From an uncultured virus (IMG/VR IMGVR_UViG_2522572172_000008) (taxonomy: Duplodnaviria; Heunggongvirae; Uroviricota; Caudoviricetes), in IMG/VR virus record IMGVR_UViG_2522572172_000008: a stretch of DNA of 64,000 bases, one strand, 5' to 3'. This document shows positions 26,737 through 59,382 of this stretch, in pieces; positions within the stretch are counted from its first letter, which is position 1, and each line of letters opens with the position of its first letter. Below the pieces are notes generated by a model that saw only the letters and a list, made by a program, of their open reading frames with translations, did not search any database and was not told where the DNA came from. Position numbers and translations under genes: made by a program.

Positions 26737-26948
26737 TATTCGCTCCTTTTAAAATAAATTCGATTAAATACCTAATTTTTATATCCTGAGTATTATACTT
26801 TTACGATGAATTAAATATAAGAAAATACATTATTATTCACGAAAAAAAGACCCCTGTCTATAAAGAGGTCTAAATCAGTTTGTATACTTAATTATAATTT
26901 ATATTCTCCCGTTTCTACTTGTCTTTCATAACCAAAATAAAAAACATC

Positions 26949-27365
26949 TTACTTTTGGGGTAAGATGCCTGGGATACATTCTTTGCTTTCTTTCAATATT
27001 TCTATTGCAGTATCGATTTTCGTTAGCAATTCCTGATTTATATGATTAACCTGCGAAGAAGATAATGAAGGTTCATCCGTTCTTCCCAAAAGAAAATCCG
27101 ATGACACATTCAATACATCGCATAATAAATCTAACATTTCTATAGAGGGCGTACTATAGCCTGTTTCATAATTAGATATGGTAGTTTTTTTCGTATTCAC
27201 TTTTATCGCAAGTTCTTCTTGCGTTAATCCACTCCATTTTCTCGCTAATCGTAAACGCTTTTTAAATACATCTACAACACCCAATACATACTCATCCTTT
27301 ACAAACTCATAATTATTTCTATCATAAACCAAAAAAGAAAGGATTTCCACCTTTCTTCTTTTCAT
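26949..27365 (-). CDS. XRE family HTH transcriptional regulator
   Basis: GLTQEELAIKV..TTISNYETGYSTPS..LNVSSDFLLGRTD; true start probably downstream. Confidence 0.9.
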   Translation of the reverse strand: MKRRKVEILSFLVYDRNNYEFVKDEYVLGVVDVFKKRLRLARKWSGLTQEELAIKVNTKKTTISNYETGYSTPSIEMLDLLCDVLNVSSDFLLGRTDEPSLSSSQVNHINQELLTKIDTAIEILKESKECIPGILPQK

Positions 27366-27763
27366 GATTCATCCTTATTCTCTTTCAAATATAATTTTAC
27401 TTCTGACATGTTCTTAATTACTGGTTTATCTTCTTCATACTTGATTTTTACTTTGTATGTTCCTTTAGGCGTAGTTGCTGTATAAACATCATATGAATTT
27501 CCCTGCTCTAATACAATCTCTTTCTCATTCACACCAATTTCTTTAGCAATTACTTTAGTTCTTTCTATGTCACCATCAGTATCCTCTACTATTTGAAATA
27601 GCCTTTCTCCTTGAACCTTTAATGCCCAAAATCCACAAAGTACAAATAATACAACAAGGATTAATAGCACAACTGGAGGAATCCATTCACTATCCATAAA
27701 ATCATAAGTGAACCTTATATTCTTTTGTTTTTCATTTCCTTCTTTATCCAATTTAACCACCAT
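27362..27763 (-). CDS. Membrane-anchored paralog family member 1
   Basis: TM + IAKEIGV...YTATTPKGTY. Confidence 0.8.
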   Translation of the reverse strand: MVVKLDKEGNEKQKNIRFTYDFMDSEWIPPVVLLILVVLFVLCGFWALKVQGERLFQIVEDTDGDIERTKVIAKEIGVNEKEIVLEQGNSYDVYTATTPKGTYKVKIKYEEDKPVIKNMSEVKLYLKENKDES

Positions 27764-27840
27764 AATTACTCCTTTTGTAAGATGTTCACACGATTTATTT
27801 TTGTGATAACATATTTATCATTTTATTAGGATTAATAGAT

Positions 27841-28215
27841 TTAATTATCTGTAGAACCTATTTTCACTTGAGCCATATTTTCTATAACTGGTTTGGATTC
27901 TGTACTCATCTGTTTATCAAAATCTATTGTTTCTTTAACTTTTAATTGATAAACACCTTTTGAAGTTGTAGCTGTATACCATTCAATGCTTTTGATTTCC
28001 TCATTCTCATTATTTTCTTTTTTTAAGACAATTTCCTTCTTAGGAACATCTAATTCACTTGAAACAAGAGCGACAATAGCATTGTTCTTACTCTTTAAAT
28101 ATTCATCATTCATTTCATTTAAAGAGCCTATCGTTAGATTCACTACATAAATACCAGTAACAACTAAGATTAAACCAAATAAAGCTCCCCAACCCTCTTT
28201 ACTCATTTGTTTCAT
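27841..28215 (-). CDS. Membrane-anchored paralog family member 2
   Basis: TM + VSSELDVP...YTATTSKGVY. Confidence 0.8.
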   Translation of the reverse strand: MKQMSKEGWGALFGLILVVTGIYVVNLTIGSLNEMNDEYLKSKNNAIVALVSSELDVPKKEIVLKKENNENEEIKSIEWYTATTSKGVYQLKVKETIDFDKQMSTESKPVIENMAQVKIGSTDN

Positions 28216-28744
28216 TCCTCTCTTTCACTTTAATATCAAACTCTAATTGATTAGCAATGAAACGCCCCATTTCATTAGATACCATCATTGCGACACGTTC
28301 TTTAAATCCAAAGGCTAATTTACCATTATCGCTCATGCCCTGTTTGATTAATTGCTGAATGTAGGATTCAATACATTTATTAATATAATCTTCTTTACCT
28401 TCCATAATTACTTTGGTTTCAACAACAATAGTCTCACGAATTAACTCTCTAATTTCTTCCTTATCCATTTTGAGTTCATTGTGAATTAAATTTTTAAACT
28501 CCTTGTAATTGCGATGAATAGTTGTATTCTTTTCATCAATTTCTGGTGTGATAAAAAAGTGAATATGATTTGTCTTGGCTTGAATCCAACTCCCATGTAA
28601 ATCAAATTCTAAATCTGTTGATTGCAGGGTAATAACCCCATCTTTTATATTTATAATAGTATCTATCGTTCTTTGCACACCTTGATTTATACAAAAGACA
28701 CTTACACTTTGACCTTCTTGAAATAGAAACTCTTCCAAGCTCAA
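28199..28744 (-). CDS. Hypothetical protein
   Basis: GAGGAGG RBS. Confidence 0.7.
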   Translation of the reverse strand: MSLEEFLFQEGQSVSVFCINQGVQRTIDTIINIKDGVITLQSTDLEFDLHGSWIQAKTNHIHFFITPEIDEKNTTIHRNYKEFKNLIHNELKMDKEEIRELIRETIVVETKVIMEGKEDYINKCIESYIQQLIKQGMSDNGKLAFGFKERVAMMVSNEMGRFIANQLEFDIKVKERNETNE

Positions 28745-28756
28745 TTCCTCCTCTAT

Positions 28757-29092
28757 TTAAGACGCTTTTTTATTTTCATCTACTTCTTTCGTGGTGATTT
28801 TTATTTCTACAATTCTTTTAATCTTTGGTTTTTCACTATCTCTATCATTTACTTCAACAGAATATACTCCTTTTTCAGTATCCGCTTGATAGATATTCGG
28901 TTCTTTACTTCTCAAAATAATTTTCGATTCAGCAACATGAACTTCTTTTGCAATCTCTTCTCTAATCTGCGACTCATATATTTGATTTTTGTGTTCAATT
29001 GACCCGATGAAACCACTTAAAAACAAATAAATCAGCGATACGCCGAACATAATAACAATAAATCCAATAGCTAATTCAAAAAAATCATCCAT
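28757..29092 (-). CDS. Membrane-anchored paralog family member 3
   Basis: TM + IAKEVHV...YQADTEKGVY. Confidence 0.8.
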   Translation of the reverse strand: MDDFFELAIGFIVIMFGVSLIYLFLSGFIGSIEHKNQIYESQIREEIAKEVHVAESKIILRSKEPNIYQADTEKGVYSVEVNDRDSEKPKIKRIVEIKITTKEVDENKKAS

Positions 29093-29117
29093 ATAAAACA
29101 TCCTCCTCCCTATAAAA

Positions 29118-29146
29118 ATCATACTAAATTCATTAACTATAGTCAA
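29118..29146 (-). promoter_or_regulatory. Motif B promoter
   Basis: ttaactatagtcaa 29133-29146; TTGACT-17-TATGAT. Confidence 0.75.
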
Positions 29147-29277
29147 TGAATGACACATACAAAATCTACTTTCTCTGCTATTTGCAAATCCATGAGATTA
29201 TAAAAAGAACATCTAACCGAGTTATCTTCATAACTTCCTGTTTAATGAAAATAAAAAAAGACTACCAAAAAGTAGTC

Positions 29278-29871
29278 TTACTGTTCTTCTTCAGAGAAAT
29301 ATTCAATGTAGGCATCAAAATCTGAGTCTAAACACTTTAAAGATATTTTTTTAGACCTATCTAATTCACGATAATGTCTTTTGTAGTAAGGATTATCCCC
29401 CTTAAAATTCGGGTCATCTACTAATGTATTCTGGATATGTCTTTCTAATTTATCAAGTATAAACCTATCTACCCTTTTTATATCTAAACTTCTAATTTCA
29501 TCAAACGCCTGTTTAATGTATGTATTGTATATATAAAACACAACCATTTCAGCTTCAAAATATCCTGAAGGAAAATAGCTTCTAAACTCAGGCTTCACAG
29601 ATTCTCTTGCTTTATCAAATAATGATTCATCTATATATACACACCCTTCTGGGTACCGCTTTACTAAGCTATCACAGACTTCTTTAAGTTCTAACAGTTC
29701 AGGTTTAGATTTACAAAGTAATGATATATATTTCAATATGAATACTTCAATATCGGAAATTTTCCTGCTTAATACAATCGTATATAATTCTTTTACCTCC
29801 TTTAACACTTCAACAATTAACTTATCGTCTTTTACATTATTCGGTTTCTCTTGCACTCTCATTCTCGGCAT
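29278..29871 (-). CDS. Hypothetical protein
   Basis: 197 aa ORF. Confidence 0.7.
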   Translation of the reverse strand: MPRMRVQEKPNNVKDDKLIVEVLKEVKELYTIVLSRKISDIEVFILKYISLLCKSKPELLELKEVCDSLVKRYPEGCVYIDESLFDKARESVKPEFRSYFPSGYFEAEMVVFYIYNTYIKQAFDEIRSLDIKRVDRFILDKLERHIQNTLVDDPNFKGDNPYYKRHYRELDRSKKISLKCLDSDFDAYIEYFSEEEQ

Positions 29872-30472
29872 CTCCTTTTACAAGTTCACTTCCAATAGAA
29901 AATAGTAAATTTCTAAATGGTACAAAATCACCATCATTCGCATAACCTGGTCCTTTTGCATAAATACGAGGTTCATTCAAATTATGTGCCTGATACTTCA
30001 TATAAGCTTCTGCTTGTGGCTTTATAAAGAAAATTGCTTTGTCTACATACGATTCTTTTCTCCACGCAATTCCTTTCATTTCAACCCCAAACACTTGAAA
30101 GTAATCATTGTAATTCTCCACAGTAATTAACTCATCATATGGATTTGAATACTCCTTATGAAGCATTTCTTCATATGATTCAATCTTAATATGTGCGTAT
30201 TCACCTGTAAGTAAAAACCATGATTCCACAGCCTCTACTTCTGATTCTACCCACTCACTTCCATACACATTAACTTTAAATACAAGTGGTGTGTATTCAA
30301 ACAAAGATTCAATTTCACTATTATATGGAATTGAATCATACACTTTGCTTTGCACTACAAAATACGGATTACCTGTTGCATGATTTGCTTCTGCACCAGG
30401 GAAATGATGATTCGCAAATTCCTTCAAGAATTGCTCTTGTTCCTTTGTGATTTCAATAATTACTTTTGTCAT
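29837..30472 (-). CDS. Phage-type hypothetical protein
   Basis: AEAYMKYQAHNLNEPRIY. Confidence 0.75.
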   Translation of the reverse strand: MTKVIIEITKEQEQFLKEFANHHFPGAEANHATGNPYFVVQSKVYDSIPYNSEIESLFEYTPLVFKVNVYGSEWVESEVEAVESWFLLTGEYAHIKIESYEEMLHKEYSNPYDELITVENYNDYFQVFGVEMKGIAWRKESYVDKAIFFIKPQAEAYMKYQAHNLNEPRIYAKGPGYANDGDFVPFRNLLFSIGSELVKGDAENESARETE

Positions 30473-30506
30473 AACATTTACAGCCCCTTTTTATAGATTC
30501 AAATTG

Positions 30507-30537
30507 AATACCTGTTTTGTAATATCTACATATCATA
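30507..30537 (-). promoter_or_regulatory. Motif A promoter
   Basis: aatacctgttttg, atcata 30532-30537. Confidence 0.7.
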
Positions 30538-30595
30538 GAATCTTTTAAAAGGCTCTATAACTAATATTTTTATTCTTGTAACTCTTTGTTATTTT

Positions 30596-30916
30596 TTAAT
30601 TCTCTTGTTTATCTAAATGGTATCTAATTTTGTTAAATAATATAGTATCTAATTCCGACTTACCTGTGCCCATCCCCATTCCTAAGGTCAAATACCATTT
30701 CTCTGCAATTCTTTTCAACTCATCATTATTTAGCTCTAATTTTTTATCATCATCATTTAATGTTTCTATCGTTTCAATACAGTCATCACCATAAGCACTT
30801 GAGGGATACCTTTCGTAGAATTTATCTTTTGCGTCAACCTCGTTCTCTGCGGTTGTTTTGTAAGTTTGAATTTCATTTACAAATCGGTTATAAAAAACGA
30901 CTATATACTTATTCAT
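30596..30916 (-). CDS. Hypothetical protein
   Basis: GAGGGG RBS. Confidence 0.7.
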   Translation of the reverse strand: MNKYIVVFYNRFVNEIQTYKTTAENEVDAKDKFYERYPSSAYGDDCIETIETLNDDDKKLELNNDELKRIAEKWYLTLGMGMGTGKSELDTILFNKIRYHLDKQEN

Positions 30917-30951
30917 TGTTAACCCCTCTTCTATATACACATATAAATTAT

Positions 30952-31116
30952 TTATTCTTTCATAAGTATCATAAAAATCTCTTTTGCTTGATACTCTTTC
31001 GGGATTTGTTTCACCGCTTCCTCTGGTGTATCGCCCTCCAAGACCGTCCAGAACGAACGCCTAATAACTTTAGCTTTCACAACAGACTCTCTGATGTAAT
31101 TCACATGATATCTCAT
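30952..31116 (-). CDS. Small protein, 54 aa (not in ORF track)
   Basis: GGAGGG RBS; MRYHVNY...GDTPEEAVK. Confidence 0.55.
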   Translation of the reverse strand: MRYHVNYIRESVVKAKVIRRSFWTVLEGDTPEEAVKQIPKEYQAKEIFMILMKE

Positions 31117-31135
31117 TATTTTTTACCCTCCACCG

Positions 31136-31345
31136 TTAAAATCTTTTATGCCACCAAGCCATGAATGTTTTCTTCCATTTTCCATTTACTAATTCAAACC
31201 CATCTATATAACATCTTCCATTTATCGTTGTTATGCTTTGTCCATTCATTTCTTTATGAAAAGGAATAACAGAGCTCCCTGAAACTACAACTCTATCCGT
31301 TTGATTTACAATAACCGTTCCTCCACAAAACGCTCCCATTTCCAT
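31136..31345 (-). CDS. Small hypothetical protein
   Basis: 69 aa, YIDGFEL..GKWKKT. Confidence 0.6.
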   Translation of the reverse strand: MEMGAFCGGTVIVNQTDRVVVSGSSVIPFHKEMNGQSITTINGRCYIDGFELVNGKWKKTFMAWWHKRF

Positions 31346-31422
31346 CAGCCTTTCTATTTAAAGTAAATTTTATCCTATAAAAAAAAGAGGAAGCAAAATC
31401 TCCCTCTTTTTTAATTTAGTTA

Positions 31423-32001
31423 TTAAGCATCTAAACCATATGCTTTTACAAGTGCGGCCAATCCACCTTGGAAACCTGCTCCAACAGCATTGAATTTCCA
31501 CTCACCGTTATGACGGTATAATTCACAGAACACAACAGCCGTTTCAATTGAGAAGTCTTCACCTAAATCGTAACGGAAGATTTCCTCCCCTGTTTCTTGA
31601 TTTGCTAAACGTACAAATGCATTTTTTACTTGACCAAAGTTTTGAGAACGTTTTTGTGCGTCATAGATTGTTACAGTAAAGGCAATTTTGTCAACAGTAG
31701 AAGGTACTTTGTCTAAATGAACCACTAATTGCTCGTCATCACCGTCTCCTCCACCTGTTAGGTTGTCACCTGAATGAACAACAGAACCACAAGTTGATTT
31801 TAGATTGTTATAGAAAATGAAATCTAAATCTTTCGCACATTTACCATTTGCATTTAATAAAAATGCAGATGCATCTAAGTCAAAATCATGACCACCATCA
31901 AATTCGTTAACATCCCAACCTAAACCAATCATTACATTTTTAAGGTTCTCTCTGCCTTTCGTAAGGTCTACTTTTTGTCCTTTTTGTAATTGAATTACCA
32001 T
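31423..32001 (-). CDS. terD: TerD family stress protein
   Basis: [38 protein letters not shown]. Confidence 0.92.
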
Positions 32002-32065
32002 AATCAATTCCTCCAATATGTATTAAGTATTAAGTTTTAGCTCTACTTATATAAAACCACATATA

Positions 32066-32079
32066 TCAACTATAGTCAA
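32066..32079. promoter_or_regulatory. Motif B
   Basis: tcaactatagtcaa. Confidence 0.65.
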
Positions 32080-32143
32080 CAGAAAAATAATAATATATAA
32101 TATAGTTAATTAATAAAACCTTAAAGAAAGGAGATGAGGTGAA

Positions 32144-32476
32144 ATGTTTTTTCTTTGGAACGCTCTTAATGTAGGATTACTTATCGCTTCAGCGATTGCA
32201 ATTAATAATAACAATATGAAATCTGGAGTAATTTATGGAGTGATTGGTGGGATATCTCTTTTACTCAGCATACTTTACTACTATAGAAGACAACTTATGA
32301 AAAATAATGCGGATTCAACTATGGGAGTTTGTATTGATAGTCTGGATTGTTTAGCTTGTGACATGAATCAAAAAAATGGATTTGATTGCGTGGATATTGA
32401 ATGTGGTAAAATGCAGATTTTAGAAATTGATTGTGATGGTGTAGAATGCATGAACGCAGATTGCTGTAGTTTATAA
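32144..32476 (+). CDS. 2-TM protein with Cys/Asp-rich tail
   Basis: Repeated DC/EC dipeptides. Confidence 0.7.
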   Translation: MFFLWNALNVGLLIASAIAINNNNMKSGVIYGVIGGISLLLSILYYYRRQLMKNNADSTMGVCIDSLDCLACDMNQKNGFDCVDIECGKMQILEIDCDGVECMNADCCSL

Positions 32477-32500
32477 AAAAAGAAAGGTGCTATTAACATA

Positions 32501-32833
32501 ATGAAACCTACAACGTTTTTATATAAGGCTTGTTTATTAATACCGTGTCATCGAAGAAAAGAAAGGTGCTTACATATAAGAGGAAAACAAATGCCTATAT
32601 GCACACGATGTTTTGCTATACTCTTAGGACATTTGCTCATTCCCATATTCTTTATATATTCTGTACCCTTCTATATAGGTTTACTTCTACAGATTCCCAT
32701 GGTAGTTGATGGATACACACAATTAAAGAAATGGAGAACCAGTAACCACGTCTTGCGGTTCCTAACAGGTATTATAAGCGGTGCAGGATTGTCCATCTTA
32801 ATTATCGCTTTTGTACGTCTACTTACTAATTAA
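32501..32833 (+). CDS. DUF2085-like membrane protein
   Basis: CHRRKERC, MPICTRC, PMVVDGYTQ, SNHVLRFLTG. Confidence 0.8.
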   Translation: MKPTTFLYKACLLIPCHRRKERCLHIRGKQMPICTRCFAILLGHLLIPIFFIYSVPFYIGLLLQIPMVVDGYTQLKKWRTSNHVLRFLTGIISGAGLSILIIAFVRLLTN

Positions 32834-33033
32834 AAAACAGAGGAGGAATAGACCTTTAGATTAAAATTCATATTAAATCTATTAATAAGAATAGCTATAT
32901 CAATATTACTTTATGGTTCTTTTCACTTCATTATGTTTTTAGAAAGTAATGGACTATAAAAATATTTAACCTTATTGACTTTTTTATATACATATGCGAA
33001 ACTATTAAAGGCTGTTATACTTAAAGAATCACC

Positions 33034-33063
33034 AAAAAGAGGATGCATATGCATCCTCTTTTT
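33034..33063. terminator. Palindromic bidirectional terminator
   Basis: aaaaagaggatgcatatgcatcctcttttt. Confidence 0.7.
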
Positions 33064-33073
33064 ATTTATACTA

Positions 33074-33436
33074 TTAATGGCTCAACTCTTTAATCTCTAA
33101 CTTTTCTACTTTGATAATGGCTCCTTCTTTGAAAGTTACATGATAGGAGCCTTCTTTTGTCTTTACTTCATAAAATGCTTTATTACGACCAATAGGTTCT
33201 ATAGACTCTATTTCATCTGCATTTTTCAAATGCAAGCTATCTGCAACAGATTTCCTTTCCTGCTTTGTTATTTCATTCATTAAAGCTCCTCCTGATAGTG
33301 CAAAACATATAGCACTAACAACTACTAATATCAATGACCATGAGTTTTCAACAAAAAGAACTCTATACATAAACACAAATACCAGTATAAAAAATACCAA
33401 AGTTGAAATTTTTAATAAAAAATATAAATTTAACAT
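33074..33436 (-). CDS. Membrane-anchored paralog family member 4
   Basis: 2 TM + VADSLHL...YEVKTKEGSY. Confidence 0.8.
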   Translation of the reverse strand: MLNLYFLLKISTLVFFILVFVFMYRVLFVENSWSLILVVVSAICFALSGGALMNEITKQERKSVADSLHLKNADEIESIEPIGRNKAFYEVKTKEGSYHVTFKEGAIIKVEKLEIKELSH

Positions 33437-33489
33437 CCTTCTATCCCCCTTGTTAGTCTCAATAATACTTATATGTAATTTAAACGATT

Positions 33490-33879
33490 CTATTTCTTCT
33501 CATTAATCTTTTTAATTTTACTTACTGTTGGTACAAGTTTTTCACTTCCTAAAGTTACATGATAAAAAACATTTTTTATCTTCACTTCTTTTAATGACCT
33601 ATTATGACGGTCTATAGTATGTATAGATTCTATTTCTGTTACATCTTTTAATTGAAGTTTTTCTACTATGGCCTTCTTCTCATAATTAAAATTAATAGGA
33701 ATATAAATAAAAGCACATACAAGGAAAGCAATAAGTGTAAATAATGGCGTTTTTAATAGAATCTCTGGCGTTCTATCAAATAGCATGAATGGCAGAACCG
33801 ATATTAACAGCAATACAGTTATCAACCCAAAACCGATAGACATACATTTCAATACAATGTATAAAGTCAATTTAACCAC
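33490..33879 (-). CDS. Membrane-anchored paralog family member 5
   Basis: 2 TM + IVEKLQL...EVKIKNVFYHV. Confidence 0.75.
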   Translation of the reverse strand: MVKLTLYIVLKCMSIGFGLITVLLLISVLPFMLFDRTPEILLKTPLFTLIAFLVCAFIYIPINFNYEKKAIVEKLQLKDVTEIESIHTIDRHNRSLKEVKIKNVFYHVTLGSEKLVPTVSKIKKINEKK

Positions 33880-33911
33880 CTCTTGGTTTATTATAATTTT
33901 TATTATGTAAA

Positions 33912-34379
33912 TTAATGATTTTCTCTTATGCGTATAATTTTTGTTGTTTTTATATCACTATCAAAAATAACAACATATTGTTTATCCAATTTCTTTATGA
34001 TGTAGCCTTTTTGATTTTCTTGAAATTCCCCCTTACTATCTTCAAAATCATAAAAAACAATATCATTTTCATTAACATCTAAAGCTTTTGCTACTAATTG
34101 ATATTGTATTTTTACGGAGTTCTCTTTCTCTTCCTGCATGTTATTGAAATCTATCAAGAATACTGCCAGTAAGGAAACAAGTGCCCCACATAAAAACGAA
34201 ACATAGAAAAACTCTGAAGGCATTCTTTTATTTGTAATTTTTTCATATTCCCACTCTTTCGATAGAATTGTAATAAATAAAATGAAAAAGCCAATGGAAC
34301 TTAACGCGAAAACAAGAATGACTTTATAACAATCTTGAAAATGAAAAAACGTCAACACATTATCAGCCCCTGTCCTCAT
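33912..34379 (-). CDS. Membrane-anchored paralog family member 6
   Basis: 2 TM + VAKALDV...KQYVVIF. Confidence 0.75.
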   Translation of the reverse strand: MRTGADNVLTFFHFQDCYKVILVFALSSIGFFILFITILSKEWEYEKITNKRMPSEFFYVSFLCGALVSLLAVFLIDFNNMQEEKENSVKIQYQLVAKALDVNENDIVFYDFEDSKGEFQENQKGYIIKKLDKQYVVIFDSDIKTTKIIRIRENH

Positions 34380-34396
34380 TCATCATAACATTTTCA

Positions 34397-34410
34397 TTGA
34401 CCATAGTAAA
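34397..34410. promoter_or_regulatory. Motif B variant
   Basis: ttgaccatagtaaa. Confidence 0.55.
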
Positions 34411-34476
34411 TGAAAAACAGAAGAGTGAACTCTCTCCTGTTTTTAGTATCCATAATATAATTATTGTAAACTGATA

Positions 34477-34878
34477 TTATCCTTCTAATACATTTAAATT
34501 CTTTTCAAAATTCTTCAATTCACTAATATCTAAAGTATCTATGCCTACATGTCTCTTTTCCTCATTCCCGACTTGTGTAAACATTTCTCTACTACGATAG
34601 TTCAATGAAACATAACCGTAATACCAAGGGAATAAGCCACTACCGAATCGAACCTTAAATACAATTTCTCTTTCTCTCTCATCGAATGCAATATCAGTAG
34701 CTCTTACAACAATATAATCCTTCTCTTTTCTATCTCCATTTTCTATCATATATAATGCTGTCTTATAGAAAAGTAAAAGTCCTTTCTTTGCAAATTCAAC
34801 GTCAATTCCATAAGTATCACTAAATTTTTGAATTTGTTCCATCGTTTCTTGTTGATTAATTAATAGTTTTACAACCAT
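34477..34878 (-). CDS. Hypothetical protein
   Basis: Soluble ORF. Confidence 0.7.
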   Translation of the reverse strand: MVVKLLINQQETMEQIQKFSDTYGIDVEFAKKGLLLFYKTALYMIENGDRKEKDYIVVRATDIAFDEREREIVFKVRFGSGLFPWYYGYVSLNYRSREMFTQVGNEEKRHVGIDTLDISELKNFEKNLNVLEG

Positions 34879-34955
34879 ATATCTATCGCCTCTTTCTATT
34901 TTTAATATAATTATCATTTGATATTCTATTTCATCTCTATTATTTTTATAAGAAT

Positions 34956-35348
34956 CTATCTTAATTTTTTATTAGATATATAATCATACTCCACAAAATA
35001 TTCTTCTTCTGGAAAACCATCAGGGTCAAGATTGTCTTGATTAATTTGTTCAAATTGCAGGTTCCCTTCAGTATGATTAACAAAAAGATGATACAAACGT
35101 TGAGTATTCAATAATTCCTTTAATAATCCTAAAGTCGAGATTTTTCGTTCTATTAATTGCAATCTCTCATCATTTGAAATCTCACTAAACAACCATTTAT
35201 CTGTATCTTCATCCACGTCCTCCACAAAGTAGTGCAAATAATATAGCTCTTCTTTTGACTTAGTAATAAGAAATAGTGGAAAATCATAATAGTCAAACAT
35301 ATGGATTGTTTTAAGATTTAAATATTTTTCCATCGTCATTAAAATCAT
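34956..35348 (-). CDS. Hypothetical protein (FDYYDxP motif)
   Basis: GGGAGG RBS. Confidence 0.7.
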   Translation of the reverse strand: MILMTMEKYLNLKTIHMFDYYDFPLFLITKSKEELYYLHYFVEDVDEDTDKWLFSEISNDERLQLIERKISTLGLLKELLNTQRLYHLFVNHTEGNLQFEQINQDNLDPDGFPEEEYFVEYDYISNKKLR

Positions 35349-35361
35349 TCTAATATCCTCC

Positions 35362-35736
35362 CTACAACCAACAATATTTATCAAAATTCACTTCTGATTT
35401 TAACCTTAAAATAACAGAAGATTCTCCTATGAAATGTACTACATATTTACCTTTTGTATATGAAACACGACCTACATTATTCGTGTTATAAACAATATCA
35501 ACTTCATTTTTAGGAACATTAAGTTCTTCTGCTACATTCTTTAACCTTTCTTCCTGAAGCTTATTTGGATTCTGTGTCGTATGCAACATATGAAAATATG
35601 AACCTATTATTAGGATTATTCCAAGTGACATTAATAGATATCCTTTATCTTCATGACCCCTTTTATTTAATAACAAAATAAGCCGACTAACGAAACCGCA
35701 TGTAAATATTATGATACCTGATATAAGTACATACAT
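35362..35736 (-). CDS. Membrane-anchored paralog family member 7
   Basis: 2 TM + VAEELNVP...KGKYVVHF. Confidence 0.8.
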   Translation of the reverse strand: MYVLISGIIIFTCGFVSRLILLLNKRGHEDKGYLLMSLGIILIIGSYFHMLHTTQNPNKLQEERLKNVAEELNVPKNEVDIVYNTNNVGRVSYTKGKYVVHFIGESSVILRLKSEVNFDKYCWL

Positions 35737-35742
35737 ACGTAC

Positions 35743-36117
35743 TCACCCTTTTTCTGACTTATTCTTTAATGATTCTATTTTTACAATGGTTGCAGTTTCT
35801 TGTTTGAATTGAACATAATAATCACCTTTTAATGAAACAGCATTCATAGAGTCTTTACCTTCGGATTCAAATCTTATCTGTTCTTTATGAATATTAAGTT
35901 TTTTTGATATACTAATCTCTCTATCGCCATTAAGTTTTTCCCTTGCTTCTTTAGCACTACTAAATGGTGCAGTCACTAAATATGCAAATAATATTATTCC
36001 TGAAGGCACTGAGAGCACTAACCCAATCCCAACGATTGTATTTTTATCTTTCTTATCTCCGATATGTATTAACAACATTCCAGTTCCCAATATGACCATT
36101 AAAATAATATAGTCCAT
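35743..36117 (-). CDS. Membrane-anchored paralog family member 8
   Basis: 2 TM + ISKKLNI...KGDYYVQF. Confidence 0.8.
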   Translation of the reverse strand: MDYIILMVILGTGMLLIHIGDKKDKNTIVGIGLVLSVPSGIILFAYLVTAPFSSAKEAREKLNGDREISISKKLNIHKEQIRFESEGKDSMNAVSLKGDYYVQFKQETATIVKIESLKNKSEKG

Positions 36118-36132
36118 TCTTTCTTTTCCTCC

Positions 36133-36333
36133 CTAATGCGAAGCATTATACATTTCACAAAAACGAATGAATCCCCATACACAAAATGGAAGACTTATAA
36201 ACACAGTAGCAAGATTATAGGCTTCGTCTTTAAGATTATCATCATCGCTTTTCATTCCTTTATAAACACAAAATGCACCTGCTAATAGTGTTGGGATTAC
36301 AAACACCCCAAATAAATAATTGACTGTAACCAT
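36133..36333 (-). CDS. Small 2-TM protein
   Basis: Two hydrophobic segments, no soluble module. Confidence 0.6.
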   Translation of the reverse strand: MVTVNYLFGVFVIPTLLAGAFCVYKGMKSDDDNLKDEAYNLATVFISLPFCVWGFIRFCEMYNASH

Positions 36334-36340
36334 CCTTTCT

Positions 36341-36646
36341 TTATAAGTTTCTGTTCGTTTTCTCTTTTTTATGAATAGCTACAATCGAATCAGCATCTTT
36401 TTTAAATAGAATGGAATATTCTCCATCCTGTGTAATTGCCTCGTAATAATCTTTTTCTTCCCTATCTCTTTCTTTTTCAATTTCTATTTTAGATTCAGGT
36501 ATTTTCAACTCTTTTGAAATTGCTTTATATCTATTTTTTTTAAGCTCTTGAATTTCCTCAAGATAGTCAAACCCAAATAAAGCAATACCACTCAAAAACA
36601 GCATACATGCAAATACACCCAAAATTTCTTTCCATTTCATATTCAC
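36341..36646 (-). CDS. Membrane-anchored paralog family member 9
   Basis: TM + ISKELKIP...YEAITQDGEY. Confidence 0.8.
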   Translation of the reverse strand: MNMKWKEILGVFACMLFLSGIALFGFDYLEEIQELKKNRYKAISKELKIPESKIEIEKERDREEKDYYEAITQDGEYSILFKKDADSIVAIHKKEKTNRNL

Positions 36647-37063
36647 TCATCCTTTTAATTTTATAATCGCTTCTATTTCATTGTTATCTTTTGATAACTC
36701 AATATAGTAGTTTCCTTTTTCTGTTTTTGCAATATATTCTATCTGTGTTTCTTTTTTTAACACCACTTGTTCTTTCTTTACATGCAACTGCTTCGCTACA
36801 AGTTGTCTAATGTTAGCCAATGATTGTTGTTTATCTAATCGTTTTACTGCTACTTTATTTTCATCTGCAACTTCATAAGCACTATGTAAGGCTTTTAAAC
36901 TTTGGAAAATCAAGCCTGATGCTGAGATAAAACATAATAGAGTCCAATATAATTTCTTTGTTTCTATTTCAGCCATTTGAAAGAAACATGTTAAAAACAG
37001 AAATGTGATAAATAAGTAAACATCTCTTTCATCCATGTGTTGAATTGCATGTATCATTTTCAT
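36647..37063 (-). CDS. Membrane-anchored paralog family member 10
   Basis: 2 TM + VAKQLHV...YIAKTEKGNY. Confidence 0.8.
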   Translation of the reverse strand: MKMIHAIQHMDERDVYLFITFLFLTCFFQMAEIETKKLYWTLLCFISASGLIFQSLKALHSAYEVADENKVAVKRLDKQQSLANIRQLVAKQLHVKKEQVVLKKETQIEYIAKTEKGNYYIELSKDNNEIEAIIKLKG

Positions 37064-37094
37064 TAACCCTTTTATGCAGAATATTCAGACCAAT

Positions 37095-37484
37095 CTATTT
37101 ATGTCTGTTATAAGATTCATTTGCAACAGTATCTACTCGCAAAATCTCCGAAGTTCCTTTTTTAAAACGAACATCATATGTACCTTCTTTTGCGTATACA
37201 TGATATACATTTCTATCCTCATTATCTTGAACAATATCAAATTCATCTAAATTTAATTCATTTTGAATCGAACTTTGAATAGCTTTGTGTTCTTCTTTTG
37301 TTGTTCTGCTTGAATCTATAGCCAATGTAAAAGATACAATAATCAATACAACCACTAACAAGATAAAAACAGGCTTTTGATTTTTAATCGAATGAATAAT
37401 ACTTAAAATAACAAGTAAAATCGTGCCTACTAACTCTATAATAAAAAATGTATCCTTACTTAAATTCATTAAAATATCCATCAT
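37095..37484 (-). CDS. Membrane-anchored paralog family member 11
   Basis: 2 TM + IQNELNL...YAKEGTY. Confidence 0.8.
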   Translation of the reverse strand: MMDILMNLSKDTFFIIELVGTILLVILSIIHSIKNQKPVFILLVVVLIIVSFTLAIDSSRTTKEEHKAIQSSIQNELNLDEFDIVQDNEDRNVYHVYAKEGTYDVRFKKGTSEILRVDTVANESYNRHK

Positions 37485-37496
37485 TCTCCCCCTTAA

Positions 37497-38084
37497 TTAT
37501 TTTACAGTTTCTACATCTTTAATCTTATCGAGTTTAAATAGCATACCTTCTTTTACATAGGCTTTATAGGTTTCTGTTTTTGTGACCACTTCATATGAAC
37601 TATAATCCAATTCGTTTATTTCCAATTGATTAGGATTCATATCTAATTTTTGAGCAATTAAACCCTTTACTTGTTCCTTTTCACTTGAACCTTTCTTGTT
37701 TACATATCTATCTAATCCTGAAGTAGGAATTGATTCAACGTAATTTAATCTATCCAGTTTAAATAGTTTTTCATTCTCATTGAAATACGCCTTATATGTT
37801 GCTGTTTTTGTTGCCACTTCATAAATATTACTTCTTATGTTGCTTATATTAAATTCAGTTGGTTTTATCTTTAATTCATTTGAAATTACATTTTGAATTG
37901 ATGCATAGTGCTTAACTTCTGAATTGAGCTTTTCATAGATAACATAAAGAGCAGTACTTGTAACAAGAACCATTCCTACTACCATTCCTATAACCCCTTT
38001 TTTAGTTTTTGATTTTTCACCTATTGCCATTAACAAAACACCTGCTATAGCAATAGCCAAGCAAACAACTACTTTAAATGTCAT
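37497..38084 (-). CDS. Membrane-anchored paralog family member 12 (two modules)
   Basis: ISNELKI...YEVATKTATY and IAQKLDM...YEVVTKTETY. Confidence 0.8.
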   Translation of the reverse strand: MTFKVVVCLAIAIAGVLLMAIGEKSKTKKGVIGMVVGMVLVTSTALYVIYEKLNSEVKHYASIQNVISNELKIKPTEFNISNIRSNIYEVATKTATYKAYFNENEKLFKLDRLNYVESIPTSGLDRYVNKKGSSEKEQVKGLIAQKLDMNPNQLEINELDYSSYEVVTKTETYKAYVKEGMLFKLDKIKDVETVK

Positions 38085-38202
38085 AAAAATCTCCCCTTTC
38101 TATACATATAGTGACATGCTCAATGAATACAAGAGAACTTATCACCTATATCCATTGAGCAAATCCAGAAACCTAATATTAAATTATATAAATTAATAGT
38201 TA

Positions 38203-38664
38203 TTATTTCTTTACTATTCCATCTACATTCACCGTTCCTTCAGATGTTTGTACATAATAAACACCTAAAGAAGTAGTTGCTATATAACGATTATCCTTGT
38301 CATTTTCTTTTTCAATAATAACATCGTCTTTGTTAATGTTTAATTTTTTAGCAACTGCTTCTCGTACTTCTGCCATTGCAATGTTATTATCTTTATTCTT
38401 ATATTCTTTATCAGTGATATTTAACTCTTTTTTATTTTTTAAATAGATTACTTCGTTTTTATCATGTGTTTGAGGAAGAGAATTAAAAACACCTGCAAGG
38501 ACAGCCATACCAACAATACTGAGTATAGTACCCCCTATAAAAAAGAATGCTATTGTTCCTTCGTCTTCATCCTCCTTACATTTATGACCACTAAATAACA
38601 TTACCATCCCAATTAATAGCAATACAATTCCAAGACCTATAGTAGAAAAAATATCCATAAGCAC
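38203..38664 (-). CDS. Membrane-anchored paralog family member 13
   Basis: 2 TM + VAKKLNI...YIATTSLGVY. Confidence 0.8.
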   Translation of the reverse strand: MLMDIFSTIGLGIVLLLIGMVMLFSGHKCKEDEDEGTIAFFFIGGTILSIVGMAVLAGVFNSLPQTHDKNEVIYLKNKKELNITDKEYKNKDNNIAMAEVREAVAKKLNINKDDVIIEKENDKDNRYIATTSLGVYYVQTSEGTVNVDGIVKK

Positions 38665-38812
38665 ACCCCTTCTTTGTTAAATAAACCTCTTACTATACAA
38701 CGCTTTTAATTTACCATAACCTAATACTAAACTTCATAAATTCAAATAATCACAGCAGATATCAATGAAACACATACATATGAAAAAATAGGCATTCCTA
38801 AACTCATTTGGT

Positions 38813-39118
38813 TTACTCATCTCGTCTTTCCAAAAGCTTGCCATCTGACAAGAAGTGAATTTTATAAGGTGGGTTTTGTTCAACTTTCGGTTTGCAATTT
38901 GATGTGGAAAAACATTTAGTTACGTTTCTAAGCATTTCTTTCATTTCCTCGGTTGTTAATGGTCGTAAAAAACTGTCTATATCTATAATGAATTCATTTG
39001 TATTCAGAACTTTAGATACCCTCTCCAAATCCGCTTCTTCATTATCATTTAAACAGTTATTATCCTTTGCCCATCTCTTCGTTACGATAAACAGATTATT
39101 TAATTCCATACTACACAA
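38813..39118 (-). CDS. Hypothetical protein
   Basis: GAGGAG RBS. Confidence 0.6.
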   Translation of the reverse strand: MCSMELNNLFIVTKRWAKDNNCLNDNEEADLERVSKVLNTNEFIIDIDSFLRPLTTEEMKEMLRNVTKCFSTSNCKPKVEQNPPYKIHFLSDGKLLERRDE

Positions 39119-39755
39119 CTCCTCTCCCTATATACTTTTTCATTTCATTAACTACTTTTTCAGGAGTTACGAGGTCTTCCATCCCTGTGCCTTTTAATTG
39201 CGGAGCAACATTTAAATCAACCGCTAATAATTCATTCCCACCTTTAACATAATCAATTGCTACCAGGGGAAATTCATATGGGTCTAAAATCCCTTCAAAG
39301 GAAGGCATTCGTGACCAACAATCAACAACAGTGATTTCAACGTCTCCTACATTGCTTCTCCAGTCATCCTTACTACGATAATCAAGTATCGTTTTTCTAC
39401 GGCCAACATTTAGAACTCTCCAACTCTCACCCAAATTCCCGCAAAGTAAGGTGCAGAAAGTATCTATTGGATAGGTTTCTAATGCTTCTATTAATGACAT
39501 TCGAATTTTCCCTTCCCCTTGGTGCTTACTAATATCTGTGTAAACAACCACTTCGGTATGTAGAGGGTATTTCTTTGCCATTTCATGAAGGTAACCATAA
39601 GGAACGGTTTTAATACCTTTAGAAGACATATAATCAAGCATCTGTAGACGATTCATTCCCATATCATGTTTTCGTAAAAAAGGCACTCCACTTCCATCAA
39701 AATGATGGTCATAATAATCATGAAAATTCGTAATTAACTTCACTTCTCTACTCAT
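39111..39755 (-). CDS. Hypothetical protein, possible ATP-grasp-like fold
   Basis: VAIDYV...LAVDLNVAPQLKG. Confidence 0.55.
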   Translation of the reverse strand: MSREVKLITNFHDYYDHHFDGSGVPFLRKHDMGMNRLQMLDYMSSKGIKTVPYGYLHEMAKKYPLHTEVVVYTDISKHQGEGKIRMSLIEALETYPIDTFCTLLCGNLGESWRVLNVGRRKTILDYRSKDDWRSNVGDVEITVVDCWSRMPSFEGILDPYEFPLVAIDYVKGGNELLAVDLNVAPQLKGTGMEDLVTPEKVVNEMKKYIGRGVV

Positions 39756-39772
39756 CTTTGCCTTCCTCTCTA

Positions 39773-40141
39773 TTAATCAGAACAAACACCTGAATCACTA
39801 CCACCACAATCATTCGAATAAGGACCTACTACCTCATTCGAGCCCAATCCTCCTGTTTTTACCAGGTCATCATTACTTACAGATGTATTAATTTGGTTTA
39901 ATGGATGTAACGGATTTGTTATATCTCCTGAATACGTTTTATTAGCTTCTTTATTTTTTGCAAAAGCTACAGCTCTTTCTGACATTTTATAACCTGTCTT
40001 TCCTGAATACGTAGTACCAATCACGAGTTTATGCAACTGACGTTCTTTTTGACTTTCTAAAATATCCATTGGAATCCCACGAGCCATACTTTCTTGTTGC
40101 TTTTTATTTAAACGGTTTCTTCTAAATCTCTTAAAAAACAA
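39773..40141 (-). CDS. Hypothetical protein with Gly/Ser tail
   Basis: NPLHPLN, isolated GTTYSGKT. Confidence 0.6.
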   Translation of the reverse strand: MFFKRFRRNRLNKKQQESMARGIPMDILESQKERQLHKLVIGTTYSGKTGYKMSERAVAFAKNKEANKTYSGDITNPLHPLNQINTSVSNDDLVKTGGLGSNEVVGPYSNDCGGSDSGVCSD

Positions 40142-40180
40142 ATTTATTCACTTCCTTTATGTCAATGTTAATCCAAGATA

Positions 40181-40210
40181 ATCATACATCTTTTCTTTGA
40201 CTATTGTCAA
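40181..40210 (-). promoter_or_regulatory. Motif B promoter
   Basis: ttgactattgtcaa 40197-40210; TTGACA-18-TATGAT. Confidence 0.7.
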
Positions 40211-40294
40211 TAAAAAACAAAAAGACATGTCTTCCTTGACATGTCTTACTAACAATAACTTTTAAATATATCACGACCATCTCATAGATGAACC

Positions 40295-40792
40295 TTATGA
40301 CTGTTTTACCATCGCTTTAATAGTAGTAGCATTCTCTTTTGTTACGACCACTTCATCTGATTTTAATTGTAATTTCTCTGAAACTAATTTCCTTACCGTT
40401 TCAGCATCGCTTGTTTTAGATTTATTTTTTTTAGATTCATTTGTTTCATCATTATCCTTCACAGAATCTTTCTCGTTATTTTCCTTTGTAACTTCATATT
40501 TTATAATATCTGCTGATATTGATTTAAATGTGAATTTATATGTATTATCTTTTGTAATGGCGATAACATCCCCTTTTTCATCCTTAAATTCAATTTGTGA
40601 CCTTGGAATATCCAACTTGTTAGCAATCGCAGTTTCACGACTATCTTCTTGGAAATCATTATAGCCTAAAATTCCAAAGATGATAGCTAACAATACTCCA
40701 AGGAATAAATTCATTGCTGATTCTTCTTTGAGACTCCAGGCTACACCACCAATAAAACATAACATTGACATAATAAATAAAAAAATAAACAT
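40295..40792 (-). CDS. Membrane-anchored paralog family member 14 (second module shortened)
   Basis: IANKLDIP...ITKDNTY; VSEKLQL..VVVTKENATTIKAMVKQ. Confidence 0.8.
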   Translation of the reverse strand: MFIFLFIMSMLCFIGGVAWSLKEESAMNLFLGVLLAIIFGILGYNDFQEDSRETAIANKLDIPRSQIEFKDEKGDVIAITKDNTYKFTFKSISADIIKYEVTKENNEKDSVKDNDETNESKKNKSKTSDAETVRKLVSEKLQLKSDEVVVTKENATTIKAMVKQS

Positions 40793-40821
40793 TTCTCTTT
40801 TTACTCCTTTAAATTTTCTCT

Positions 40822-41385
40822 TTAACCCTGTTTTACCATCGCCTTTATAGAAATTGAATTTTCTTCCGTTTCTACTACATACTTACCTGATGATGTAATA
40901 GCTGTGTATAAGTTCTCTTTATCTTTCGTTACAACCACTTCATCTTTTTGTAGGTTAAGCTTATTCGCTACCATCTCTCTTACTTTCTCCTCATTTTTCA
41001 TAGAAGGTTCATTTACCTTGTTACTCCCTTCTTTTTTTCTATCTATTTTTTCCCATTTAATAATGGCACTGGAATCAGATTTGAATTCATACATGTAATC
41101 GTTATCTTTTGTGCTTACATATACATTTGATTGATAATGTTTAAAATTAACATTCTCTTTGTTCACATCTAATTTCCCCGCAATAACCATTTCTCTCTCA
41201 TTTTCTAAGGAAGCAGATTGATAAGGTAAAATCCCTAATACAATAGCACCTACAGATAGAACCATTATAAAATATTCCATCCCATCCAAAAGATAGTCAT
41301 TGTCAGTACATGCATAAGCAATAGATAAGCAAAGAACAATCCCCCAAACTATCATCCAAATCATCCAGAACAACATTAACAACAT
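40822..41385 (-). CDS. Membrane-anchored paralog family member 15 (two modules)
   Basis: IAGKLDV...STKDNDY; VANKLNL...YTAITSSGKY. Confidence 0.8.
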   Translation of the reverse strand: MLLMLFWMIWMIVWGIVLCLSIAYACTDNDYLLDGMEYFIMVLSVGAIVLGILPYQSASLENEREMVIAGKLDVNKENVNFKHYQSNVYVSTKDNDYMYEFKSDSSAIIKWEKIDRKKEGSNKVNEPSMKNEEKVREMVANKLNLQKDEVVVTKDKENLYTAITSSGKYVVETEENSISIKAMVKQG

Positions 41386-41437
41386 CCTTTCTTTATCTAT
41401 TCAATTAACGTTTCTTACAAAAGAATAACACTTTTTA

Positions 41438-41451
41438 TTAACTATAGTCAA
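41438..41451. promoter_or_regulatory. Motif B
   Basis: ttaactatagtcaa. Confidence 0.7.
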
Positions 41452-41505
41452 TAAATAAAAAAATGACACCCATATTGAATGCCATTTAAAAACAATCCCC
41501 GTTTT

Positions 41506-51076: not shown

Positions 51077-51105
51077 TTGACTATAGTAAATAAAAATGTT
51101 AATAT
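51077..51105 (+). promoter_or_regulatory. Motif B promoter of ftsH
   Basis: ttgactatagtaaa; TTGACT-17-TAATAT. Confidence 0.7.
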
Positions 51106-51150: not shown

Positions 51151-52911
51151 ATGAAGAAATTTAAATTTAAGAAACCTAATAAAAAAAATCTTCGTAATTA
51201 CTTAATGTTTATTACGATTTTATTAGTAGTTCTTTCTCCATTTATTAGTGCATACTTTACGGAGAATCCTAAAGAAATTTCGTATACGACATTTACTAAC
51301 ATGCTTAAAGAGCATAAAGTAAAAGAAGTTACAATTATAAGAGGAACTGGTTCTGTCGTAGTAACAGATAAATCAAAGAAAGAATTTCAAACAGAAAATC
51401 CTCGTCATGAAACATTCAAGAAGGAATTACTTGAATCTGATGTTCGTGTCGTAGAGTATACACCTATTGATTTTGCAGGGTACCTTCGTAACCTTATTAT
51501 TATTGGATTAATAATTGCCTTCTTCATTTGGATGCAGAAGAAACAAATGAATATTGGTGCTTCCTCTAAAACATCATCTACTGTAAAAATTAATTCCGAT
51601 TTATCCTTTAAAGATGTTGCAGGAAACAAGGGTGTTATTAAGGATTTGAAACTACTTGTGGACTTTTTAAAGGACCCTAAGAGATATGATAAATTAGGAG
51701 CAACAATGCCTAAAGGTGTTCTTTTATATGGACCACCAGGAACAGGAAAAACACTAATTGCTAAAGCATTAGCAGGTGAAGCTAAAGTTCCTTTCTTCAG
51801 CATCTCAGGTTCGGATTTTATTGAGAAATTTGTAGGGGTTGGTGCTTCTCGTGTTCGTGATTTATTTGAAAACGCAAGAAAACATTCTCCATGTATCATT
51901 TTTATTGATGAGTTAGATGCAATTGGTGGAAAACGTGAAGGTGCTCACGCTGAAAATACCCAAACAATTAATGCATTACTTTCTGAAATGGATGGATATT
52001 CTTCTGCAAATGGAGTATTAGTCATCGCTACTACAAACCGTATTGAATCTTTAGATGATGCTCTTGTCCGAGCAGGACGATTCGACAAGCACGTAATGGT
52101 TCCATTACCACAGACTCCTCAAGAGCGTGAAGAAATTATTGAGATTCATGCAAAAGGAAAAACATTTGCTGATGATTTTTCAATTAGTCATTTAGCAAAA
52201 CAAACTCTTGGTTTTAGTGGTGCAGATATAAAATCCTTATTAAATGAAGCTTTACTCATCTCAATTCAAGATGGTAAAGAAGCCATAGATATGCAAAGTA
52301 TTGACAAGGCTATGTTTAAGATAATTCTGAAAGGTCATCCAAATGAGGATATGCCACGAAGCAAAGAGGAAATTCGATTAGTAGCTTATCATGAAGCTGG
52401 TCACGCCCTTGTTGCGAAGTTAATAACAGATATTTCAGTTCCTAAAGTAACGATTATTTCTTCCACTTCTGGTGCAGGAGGCGTAACATTCTACAGCCCT
52501 TCTAAATCAGGACTACATACGATTGAAGAGTTGAAGAATGAAATCAAACGAGCATACGGTGGTCGAGTAGCTGAATATTTACTGTTTAATGACAACCAAA
52601 AAGTAACAACAGGTGCTCATAATGATATCTTGCAAGCTACTAAGAAAATCAAAGAAATGATTTCTTCCTATGGTATGGATGAATCAATTGGCATGTTAAA
52701 TCTTAATGTGTTAAAGGCTAATGAAAGCTCAATCTTAGAACGTGCAACGAAGTTATCAAGCCAACTTTACGATGAGACTGTTCAACTTCTTACAGACAAT
52801 CGACTTCTATTAGATGCCATTGCAGAAGCCCTAATCGAAAAAGAAACATTATCAGAAGAAGAATTGGATGCTATTATCAGTGAACATTCTGATGTACGAA
52901 TTGCAAGTTAA
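51151..52911 (+). CDS. ftsH: ATP-dependent zinc metalloprotease FtsH
   Basis: 2 [37 protein letters not shown]. Confidence 0.93.
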
Positions 52912-59260: not shown

Positions 59261-59382
59261 TGGAATAACCCCCTTTATTTGATATACCTTATATTAGATT
59301 TTAGTAGCAGATTTTATAAATCAATTTGGTCGAATATAAGCAAAAAGGACGAAATGATATCATTCGCCCATTATCTACCTGC

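Follow-up and report, generated by a model that had tools for sequence, protein, structure and literature searches.

Why should a plasmid carry about twenty diverged copies of one small membrane-anchored protein? The question is raised by a stretch of 64,000 nucleotides (hereafter the window) recorded as the uncultured virus IMGVR_UViG_2522572172_000008 (IMG/VR), in which 15 such genes form an array between positions 27,362 and 41,385. A preliminary description of the window had proposed that these genes share one PepSY-like module of about 50 residues, carried twice by three of them, and that they make up a hypervariable and undescribed system, for example of entry exclusion factors or of adaptors for a co-regulated FtsH protease. 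Bases 33000-41500 of the window are 100% identical to BTB_502p, a plasmid of Bacillus thuringiensis Bt407 (NC_018878.1, 501,911 bp), and this was the sole matching record among the 72,556 plasmids searched (PLSDB). A window position equals the NC_018878.1 position minus 249,971. BTB_502p was termed "entirely novel" by its genome announcement (PMC3569317), and a surfaceome study of the strain lists proteins of this plasmid under old locus tags. In NC_018878.1, the neighborhood of the array is a long series of small minus-strand genes, almost all annotated as hypothetical.

Fifteen genes of the array share one module of about 55 residues

All 15 open reading frames (ORFs) were found where the preliminary description had placed them. 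They lie on the minus strand, are annotated as hypothetical proteins in NC_018878.1 and are arranged in four operons (Table 1). We built a profile from 17 module stretches and, to guard against circularity, rebuilt it 15 times, leaving out the modules of a different gene in each round. Searched against the 281 ORFs of the window, these profiles regained the left-out gene in 14 of the 15 cases with E values from 8e-21 to 1.4e-4, whereas the best non-family ORF scored between 0.014 and 0.25. The common pattern is thus a real module of about 55 residues. The single gene that was missed, 33490-33879 (E 35), matches its neighbor 33074-33436 with an E value of 7e-10 in BLASTP and was therefore counted as a family member.

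The modules have diverged widely, with identities between paralogs of 18.6-48.1% (median 31.5%; 104 alignments of at least 35 residues). The 17 aligned stretches retain one invariant tyrosine and clear alternating hydrophobic positions. A crude hydropathy scan found one hydrophobic segment in five of the 15 proteins and two in the other ten. The picture of a diversified family of membrane-anchored paralogs held up. The count of two-module genes had to be corrected from three to two, since full modules in duplicate are found in 37497-38084 and 40822-41385 alone. Gene 40295-40792 has one full module and a stump that covers 24 of the 58 profile positions (positions 1-24, E 4.1e-4), and its relative P0004 retains the second module whole. 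Similarly, 38203-38664 is without a first module that its relative P0005 retains. Best-match pairs in BLAST were often adjacent genes or the two modules within one gene, which fits the expectation for tandem duplication.

The module profile matched 23 places on BTB_502p. Outside the array, five to six weaker copies lie near positions 19.8, 171, and 220 kb of NC_018878.1 and encode small proteins with hydrophobic N-terminal segments. Those near 220 kb form a tandem trio with a common YxVYTKKGxY motif, and one of the outlying copies is a 235-residue protein in which the module follows a long soluble N-terminal part. The array is the product of a plasmid-lineage expansion of one small membrane-anchored family, which has 15 genes here and five to six weaker copies elsewhere on BTB_502p.

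Relatives lie on plasmids of Bacillaceae and include gene 30 of pLS20

When 1.84 billion representative proteins were searched with the profile, 33 matched at E≤0.001, three of them as repetitive false matches. The remaining ones were all small (92-195 residues) and had the same build as the array proteins. Close relatives came from contigs with a B. cereus group label and a length of about 485-506 kb; the labels of distant ones were B. subtilis group, B. amyloliquefaciens, and Peribacillus. By tblastn, we found a tandem trio on a 215-kb plasmid of B. velezensis and further copies on pBatNRS213 of B. atrophaeus (66.8 kb). The B. velezensis trio (NZ_CP076292.1, 8274-9324 of the locus examined) lies just upstream of a plasmid-borne gene for topoisomerase IV subunit B, and a plasmid near-identical to this one exists in B. 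amyloliquefaciens. One of the pBatNRS213 copies, with 66.6 bits to the family profile, directly follows a gene annotated "Surface exclusion protein Ses"; a second copy (UFD97627.1) was not found in the supplement text of PMC8708921.

Relatives of the copy behind the Ses gene are present in 35 plasmid records, 33 of them typed as conjugative, and among these is gene 30 of pLS20. This gene has 99 codons, follows a gene of 390 codons and encodes a protein in which the module comes after a single hydrophobic helix at the N-terminus. It matched the wide family profile with 43.9 bits over positions 2-55 and the profile made from the window alone with 21.8 bits. Profile scores thereby place pLS20 gene 30 in the same family, which has expanded about 20-fold on BTB_502p. 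The two plasmids resemble each other in the build of these proteins and in belonging to Bacillaceae, and differ in that pLS20 has a single copy right after ses in its conjugation operon whereas BTB_502p has about 20, which sit in separate operons. The position directly after ses holds for pLS20 and pBatNRS213; no such gene stands in the array operons, and BTB_502p gave no Ses homolog at E≤0.01.

Passages of the pLS20 study by Gago-Cordoba et al. (PMC6635565) report that gene 30 is co-transcribed with ses and that its deletion, alone or together with gene 29, left exclusion and transfer unchanged according to the authors. The same passages describe both deletion and expression of gene 30 with surface exclusion unaffected, which weakens the earlier idea of entry exclusion.

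None of 71 species genomes of the genus that includes the B. cereus group matched the module profile at E≤1e-4, and searches of species genomes and viral contigs with single proteins gave no relative. Phages (50,697 records) yielded no tblastn match to two members at E≤0.01 and no megablast match to bases 33000-41500 at E≤1e-5. Judged by these sequence searches, the family is confined to Bacillaceae plasmids. It is unnamed so far, and in this respect the label of an undescribed system stands; it falls short in that one member, pLS20 gene 30, has already been studied, as the only relative, and in that a Pfam family is remotely related, as described below.

The module is remotely related to DUF3290 and not to PepSY by sequence

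We compared the module with PepSY and with other families. For PepSY (PF03413, cut-off 24 bits), neither the 17 window proteins scanned nor the 24 family members gave a Pfam match at E≤1, and the whole 502-kb plasmid gave none at E≤0.01, under conditions in which control genomes do match. When 11 PepSY domains taken from three genomes of the B. cereus-group genus were aligned with the module profile by hhalign, the probability was 2.2%, or 0.5% with a wider alignment. A PepSY identity by sequence was ruled out on these grounds. DUF3139 and YfjL_N, which had been suggested by Atlas, were also rejected (0.2-1.0%, with thin profiles of two sequences each).

DUF3290 (PF11694) behaved differently. 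Four of the 24 members had sub-threshold Pfam matches to it at E≤1 (best 5.3e-4), and in a scan of the window proteins the values were 0.057 and 0.94. In hhalign, the family aligned with DUF3290 at 87% probability (E 4.1e-6) over 50 columns, that is, the whole module, and the window modules alone at 73.5% (E 3e-5) over 41 columns, whereas three other families gave 0.2-2.2% by the same procedure. The nine proteins of the DUF3290 alignment came from 151 sampled genomes of the class Bacilli, of which nine have DUF3290, with one copy per matching genome; 60 genomes sampled from the taxonomic family of the host had none. All nine proteins have two transmembrane (TM) helices followed by a C-terminal module, and in all nine loci a gene of about 210 codons follows directly. 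Its product was a membrane protein with YetF_N plus DUF421 in the six cases scanned. DUF3290 and this neighbor form a conserved two-gene unit.

We concluded from the profile comparisons that the family is a remote relative of DUF3290, an uncharacterized family of Lactobacillales; a full-text literature search returned no paper with the word DUF3290. The likeness extends to the order of two TM helices and then the module, since ten of the 15 window members have two segments. DUF3290 differs in being single-copy and paired with the gene of about 210 codons, for which the three family-carrying plasmids compared have no YetF/DUF421 counterpart.

The predicted fold is a helix on a four-stranded sheet

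The AlphaFold2 model of 36341-36646, made with a family alignment of 24 sequences, had a pLDDT of 89.9 and agrees with the earlier prediction of a helix and three to four strands. It consists of one helix (residues 4-47, anchor included) and four strands (55-62, 65-71, 76-82, and 88-93) in an antiparallel sheet. The model of 40822-41385 (pLDDT 73) shows a helical hairpin and two helix-sheet units, joined by a linker with pLDDT below 50 (residues 117-128). In the models, the last N-terminal helix thus runs straight into the module of about 55 residues, and the two genes with two modules carry them as separate beads.

Foldseek found no match at E≤0.001 in the PDB or BFVD, and a sequence profile search of the PDB gave nothing below E 0.045. 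An exhaustive fold aligner ranked an amine oxidase domain (Z 6.3), TraH of pIP501 (6.3), the C-terminal domain of YpeB (5.9), Ugi-2 (5.8), cystatin (5.6), UipA (5.5), YpmB (5.0), and a BLIP-like protein (4.7), with kinases scoring alike; by the aligner's own note, such Z values lie within the range reached by unrelated models. Because of this, the modeled fold says no more than that the module has a common helix-on-sheet build, which PepSY also has. The PepSY proteins YpeB, YpmB/TseB, and UipA likewise carry a helix on a four-stranded sheet, often right after a membrane anchor. The label "PepSY-like" keeps its meaning as a loose resemblance of fold (Z 5.0-5.9, within background) and loses it for the sequence, in which no similarity was found by single sequences or profiles.

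The module probably faces outward, as judged from the sequences. Among the hairpin members, the loop between the two TM segments is net-basic in four of ten, acidic in two, and neutral in four; the corresponding loops are strongly basic in all nine DUF3290 proteins.

Modules are conserved among orthologs while anchors drift

We next turned to the claim that the repertoire is hypervariable. Among 14 orthologs of 36341-36646, the sheet varied in only 8 of its 42 columns, compared with 18 of 25 columns for the anchor and 10 of 25 for the juxtamembrane helix. The same trend was seen in pooled ortholog pairs (60-99.5% identity), with 76% identity for the anchor and 87% for the module, and contradicts hypervariability of the module. 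Two genes, 36647 and 40822, followed the reverse trend with a module less conserved than the anchor. A module that is protected while its anchor drifts is a poor fit to a hypervariable binding surface, and the pattern fits old paralogs that may each have a fixed job.

The rate of divergence was compared with that of a neighbor in the same operon. A family gene fell into 14 clusters at 90% identity, whereas 39111-39755 gave one cluster of 34 members and one other within the B. cereus group.

The array genes form four operons and appear in RNA libraries

A palindrome, TTGACTATAGTCAA, stands ahead of all four array operons, and a terminator-like hairpin at the end of each (Table 1). It is the "motif B" that had been noted before several of them. 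Its left half doubles as the -35 hexamer of a promoter of the sigma-A type (TTGACT, 17-18 nt, TATGAT). The window holds 30 strand matches to the 11-base core of the palindrome, where 2.07 would be expected, and about 17 TTGACTATAGTCAA sites are spread over window positions 4851-61058. With up to two mismatches, the 14-mer occurs at 111 sites on the plasmid, compared with one for a reversed control; with up to one mismatch, 17.1 Mb from three genomes of the genus hold a single site. From their sequence and spread, these sites look like a plasmid-wide promoter-operator regulon. The palindrome of 111 sites is therefore a promoter type of the whole plasmid and not a specific link between the array and FtsH, so that the claimed co-regulation of the two is unspecific. 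A gene for an FtsH-family protease (51151-52911, plus strand) and one for a Bax inhibitor-1/YccA family protein (58530-59261, minus strand) are both encoded on the plasmid a few kb apart, near palindrome sites.

For gene 35362-35736, the database start at 35631 gives a protein of 89 residues that has lost the first TM segment. The long reading of 124 residues is supported by the relatives, which measure 114-129 residues. Neither a toxin nor a secretion gene was seen in the four operons in gene tables and in PHROG and NCBIfam scans; the PHROG scan gave weak matches only (E about 6e-4) and the NCBIfam scan nothing meaningful.

Table 1. Features of the four array operons by window position. "Leave-out E" is the E value in the search with the profile built without the modules of that gene.
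Feature	Position	Strand	Remarks
Operon 1 promoter	29118..29146	-	TTGACT, 17 nt, TATGAT; -35 hexamer within palindrome TTGACTATAGTCAA
Family member, one TM segment, one module	28757..29092 (annotated start)	-	Leave-out E 4.1e-9
Non-family gene in operon 1	28199..28738	-	No family match in PHROG or NCBIfam scans
Family member, one TM segment, one module with long loop insertion	27841..28206	-	Leave-out E 1.1e-6
Family member, one TM segment, one module	27362..27763	-	Leave-out E 3e-11
XRE-type helix-turn-helix regulator, last in operon 1	26949..27365	-	4-nt overlap with family gene
Terminator-like hairpin closing operon 1	26848..26871	-	X1 contig end at 26841
Operon 2 promoter	34382..34410	-	TTTACT, 17 nt, TATGAT; degenerate palindrome
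Family member, two TM segments, one module	33912..34358	-	Leave-out E 1.4e-4
Family member, two TM segments, one divergent module	33490..33870 (ORF 33490-33879)	-	BLASTP 7e-10
Family member, two TM segments, one module	33074..33436	-	Leave-out E 9.5e-12
Terminator-like hairpin closing operon 2	33033..33064	-	
Operon 3 promoter	40181..40210	-	TTGACA, 18 nt, TATGAT; palindrome variant TTGACAATAGTCAA
Three non-family genes heading operon 3	38813..40141 (39773-40141, 39111-39755, 38813-39109)	-	
Family member, two TM segments, one module	38203..38658 (ORF 38203-38664)	-	Leave-out E 2.2e-11
Family member, two TM segments, two full modules	37497..38084	-	Module E 5.5e-18, 3.1e-18
Family member, two TM segments, one module	37095..37481	-	Leave-out E 4.3e-10
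Family member, one clear TM and one weaker hydrophobic segment, one module	36647..37057	-	Leave-out E 4e-11
Family member, one TM segment, one module; folded protein	36341..36640 (ORF 36341-36646)	-	Leave-out E 2.9e-13
66-aa ORF inside array, two hydrophobic segments, no module	36133..36333	-	Absent from PLSDB gene table
Family member, two TM segments, one module	35743..36117	-	Leave-out E 7.4e-13
Family member, two TM segments, one module	35362..35736	-	Leave-out E 4.6e-6
Two non-family genes ending operon 3: DUF6575 protein and hypothetical protein	34477..35348	-	
Terminator-like hairpin closing operon 3	34413..34444	-	
Operon 4 promoter	41422..41451	-	TTGACT, 18 nt, TATTCT; TG before -10; palindrome over -35
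Family member, two TM segments, two full modules, disordered linker	40822..41376 (ORF 40822-41385)	-	Module E 5.6e-22, 9.3e-18
Family member, two TM segments, one full module and second shortened by in-frame loss	40295..40792	-	
Terminator-like hairpin closing operon 4	40222..40247	-	

The array genes appear in RNA libraries and are thus expressed. In one run (X1), all 30 bins of the array had depth, and contigs covered 26841-29103, 33122-40237, and 40223-41321. The ends of the first contig lie within 15 nt of the predicted promoter of operon 1 and 7 nt of its terminator, although RNA contigs cannot prove transcript ends or levels. Contigs on neighboring stretches had depths of 95.8, 423, 1476.8, and 135.7, with a 15-fold gap between adjacent contigs, and such unequal depths argue against plain carry-over of DNA. 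Run X5 of the same study had no depth on 34765-38070, and contigs of low depth on the array came from a second RNA study. In three of four RNA runs, the deepest contig of the region was that of a TerD-family gene (31423-32016, minus strand; 1476.8 in X1), at about ten times the depth of the array operons. The loci obtained with this TerD gene as query were all those of chromosomal TerD genes with identities of up to 77%; none came from a related plasmid.

Discussion

We tentatively favor the reading that the array is a specialized set of membrane-tethered docking subunits with one partner for each copy. Each paralog would be a docking module tethered in the membrane, with a conserved surface of its own, and would bind a target that differs from copy to copy, namely a membrane or envelope protein of host or plasmid origin, thereby altering the activity or stability of this target; the anchor would merely keep the module at the membrane. 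That every copy may have its own partner is suggested by the fixed pairing of DUF3290 with a YetF protein. The array would then be an old set of accessory subunits and neither a fast-evolving arms-race repertoire nor an exclusion system.

Several points weigh against this reading. The link to DUF3290 is remote, with no member reaching the Pfam cut-off of 31.3 bits, and a YetF/DUF421 gene is absent from BTB_502p, the 215-kb plasmid, and pBatNRS213, the three family-carrying plasmids compared, so that the analogy lacks its partner here. Passages of PMC6635565 report no phenotype of the pLS20 gene 30 deletion in the matings tested, and the family may thus be dispensable under laboratory conditions. 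The evidence on the orientation of the module is also divided: the greater part of p30 was placed inside the cell by TMHMM, as used by the pLS20 authors in the same passages, the loops of two hairpin members are acidic, and an indecisive count of charges over 38 family members favored an outward module in 21, the reverse in 13, and neither in four. Finally, the cluster counts indicate some faster evolution of family genes than of the neighbor gene.

Arrays of diverged immunity paralogs or of phage superinfection-exclusion proteins work as protective repertoires, and immunity genes occur as tandem diverged arrays. By analogy, the array could be one of immunity or decoy proteins, in which each tethered module neutralizes a different incoming threat at the cell surface (secreted toxins, wall hydrolases, bacteriocins, or phage components, for example). 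We consider this unlikely. The many diverged copies of one small anchored domain, their restriction to plasmids, and their divergence beyond that of the neighbor gene are all consistent with it, and diverged copies of a small protein side by side on a mobile element are also what the tandem immunity and exclusion arrays of Firmicutes look like. Cystatin, the BLIP-like protein, and Ugi-2 are among the weak fold matches (Z 4.7-5.8), which lie within the background, and the best viral fold matches are small uncharacterized proteins of large Listeria, Staphylococcus, and Bacillus phages. Conserved ortholog modules on drifting anchors are the opposite of an arms-race surface and set the array apart from the Firmicutes arrays, as does the lack of a cognate toxin near it; the operons showed no toxin or secretion gene, and neither the tblastn search with two members nor the megablast search of phages gave a match.

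YccA is a substrate of FtsH in E. coli. The array proteins could by the same token be substrates or adaptors of the FtsH protease of the plasmid (51151-52911), which stands behind the same palindrome-bearing promoter type (site 51077-51090) and has a Bax inhibitor-1/YccA family gene nearby, and we regard this as very unlikely. Regulation shared with 111 sites is unspecific, and the family has relatives on pLS20-type plasmids, where no FtsH was seen in the stretches read, although no search aimed at FtsH was made there.

It is scarcely probable that the modules are true but divergent PepSY domains that regulate or inhibit secreted or membrane peptidases. They have the same order of elements, one helix and then four strands, the Z values of YpeB, UipA, and YpmB, and TM-scores of 0.53-0.62 to Atlas clusters with PepSY, but those Z values are no higher than for unrelated folds, and Pfam, plasmid-wide, and hhalign comparisons found no PepSY. 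Equally improbable is that the proteins keep a plasmid-bearing cell from receiving the plasmid again, as might be read from the members that directly follow ses in pLS20 and pBatNRS213, since exclusion persisted in the reported gene 30 deletions, BTB_502p has no Ses homolog at E≤0.01, and twenty copies far exceed the need of an exclusion system.

Two tempting labels can be removed from the array: PepSY, which is wrong, and the hypervariable exclusion repertoire, which is unsupported. In their place, about 20 genes annotated as "hypothetical" in a model strain of B. thuringiensis receive a family identity, together with pLS20 gene 30, a conserved gene of a conjugation operon without a known role. 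Both are tied to the untouched Pfam family DUF3290, which comes paired with a YetF-type membrane protein. Through this link the array ceases to be anonymous and offers an idea that can be tested in genetically easy Bacillus strains, that of anchored partner-binding subunits. A bolder form of the docking reading, which we think improbable, would see in the array a kit of more than 20 docking modules matched to different host membrane proteins, for example the YetF-family proteins of the spore inner membrane, a family that pairs with DUF3290 elsewhere. With such a kit the plasmid might retune the envelope, sporulation, or germination of its host, and pLS20 gene 30 would be the one-copy form of it. 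If true, plasmids would have in this docking kit a new means of manipulating their hosts.

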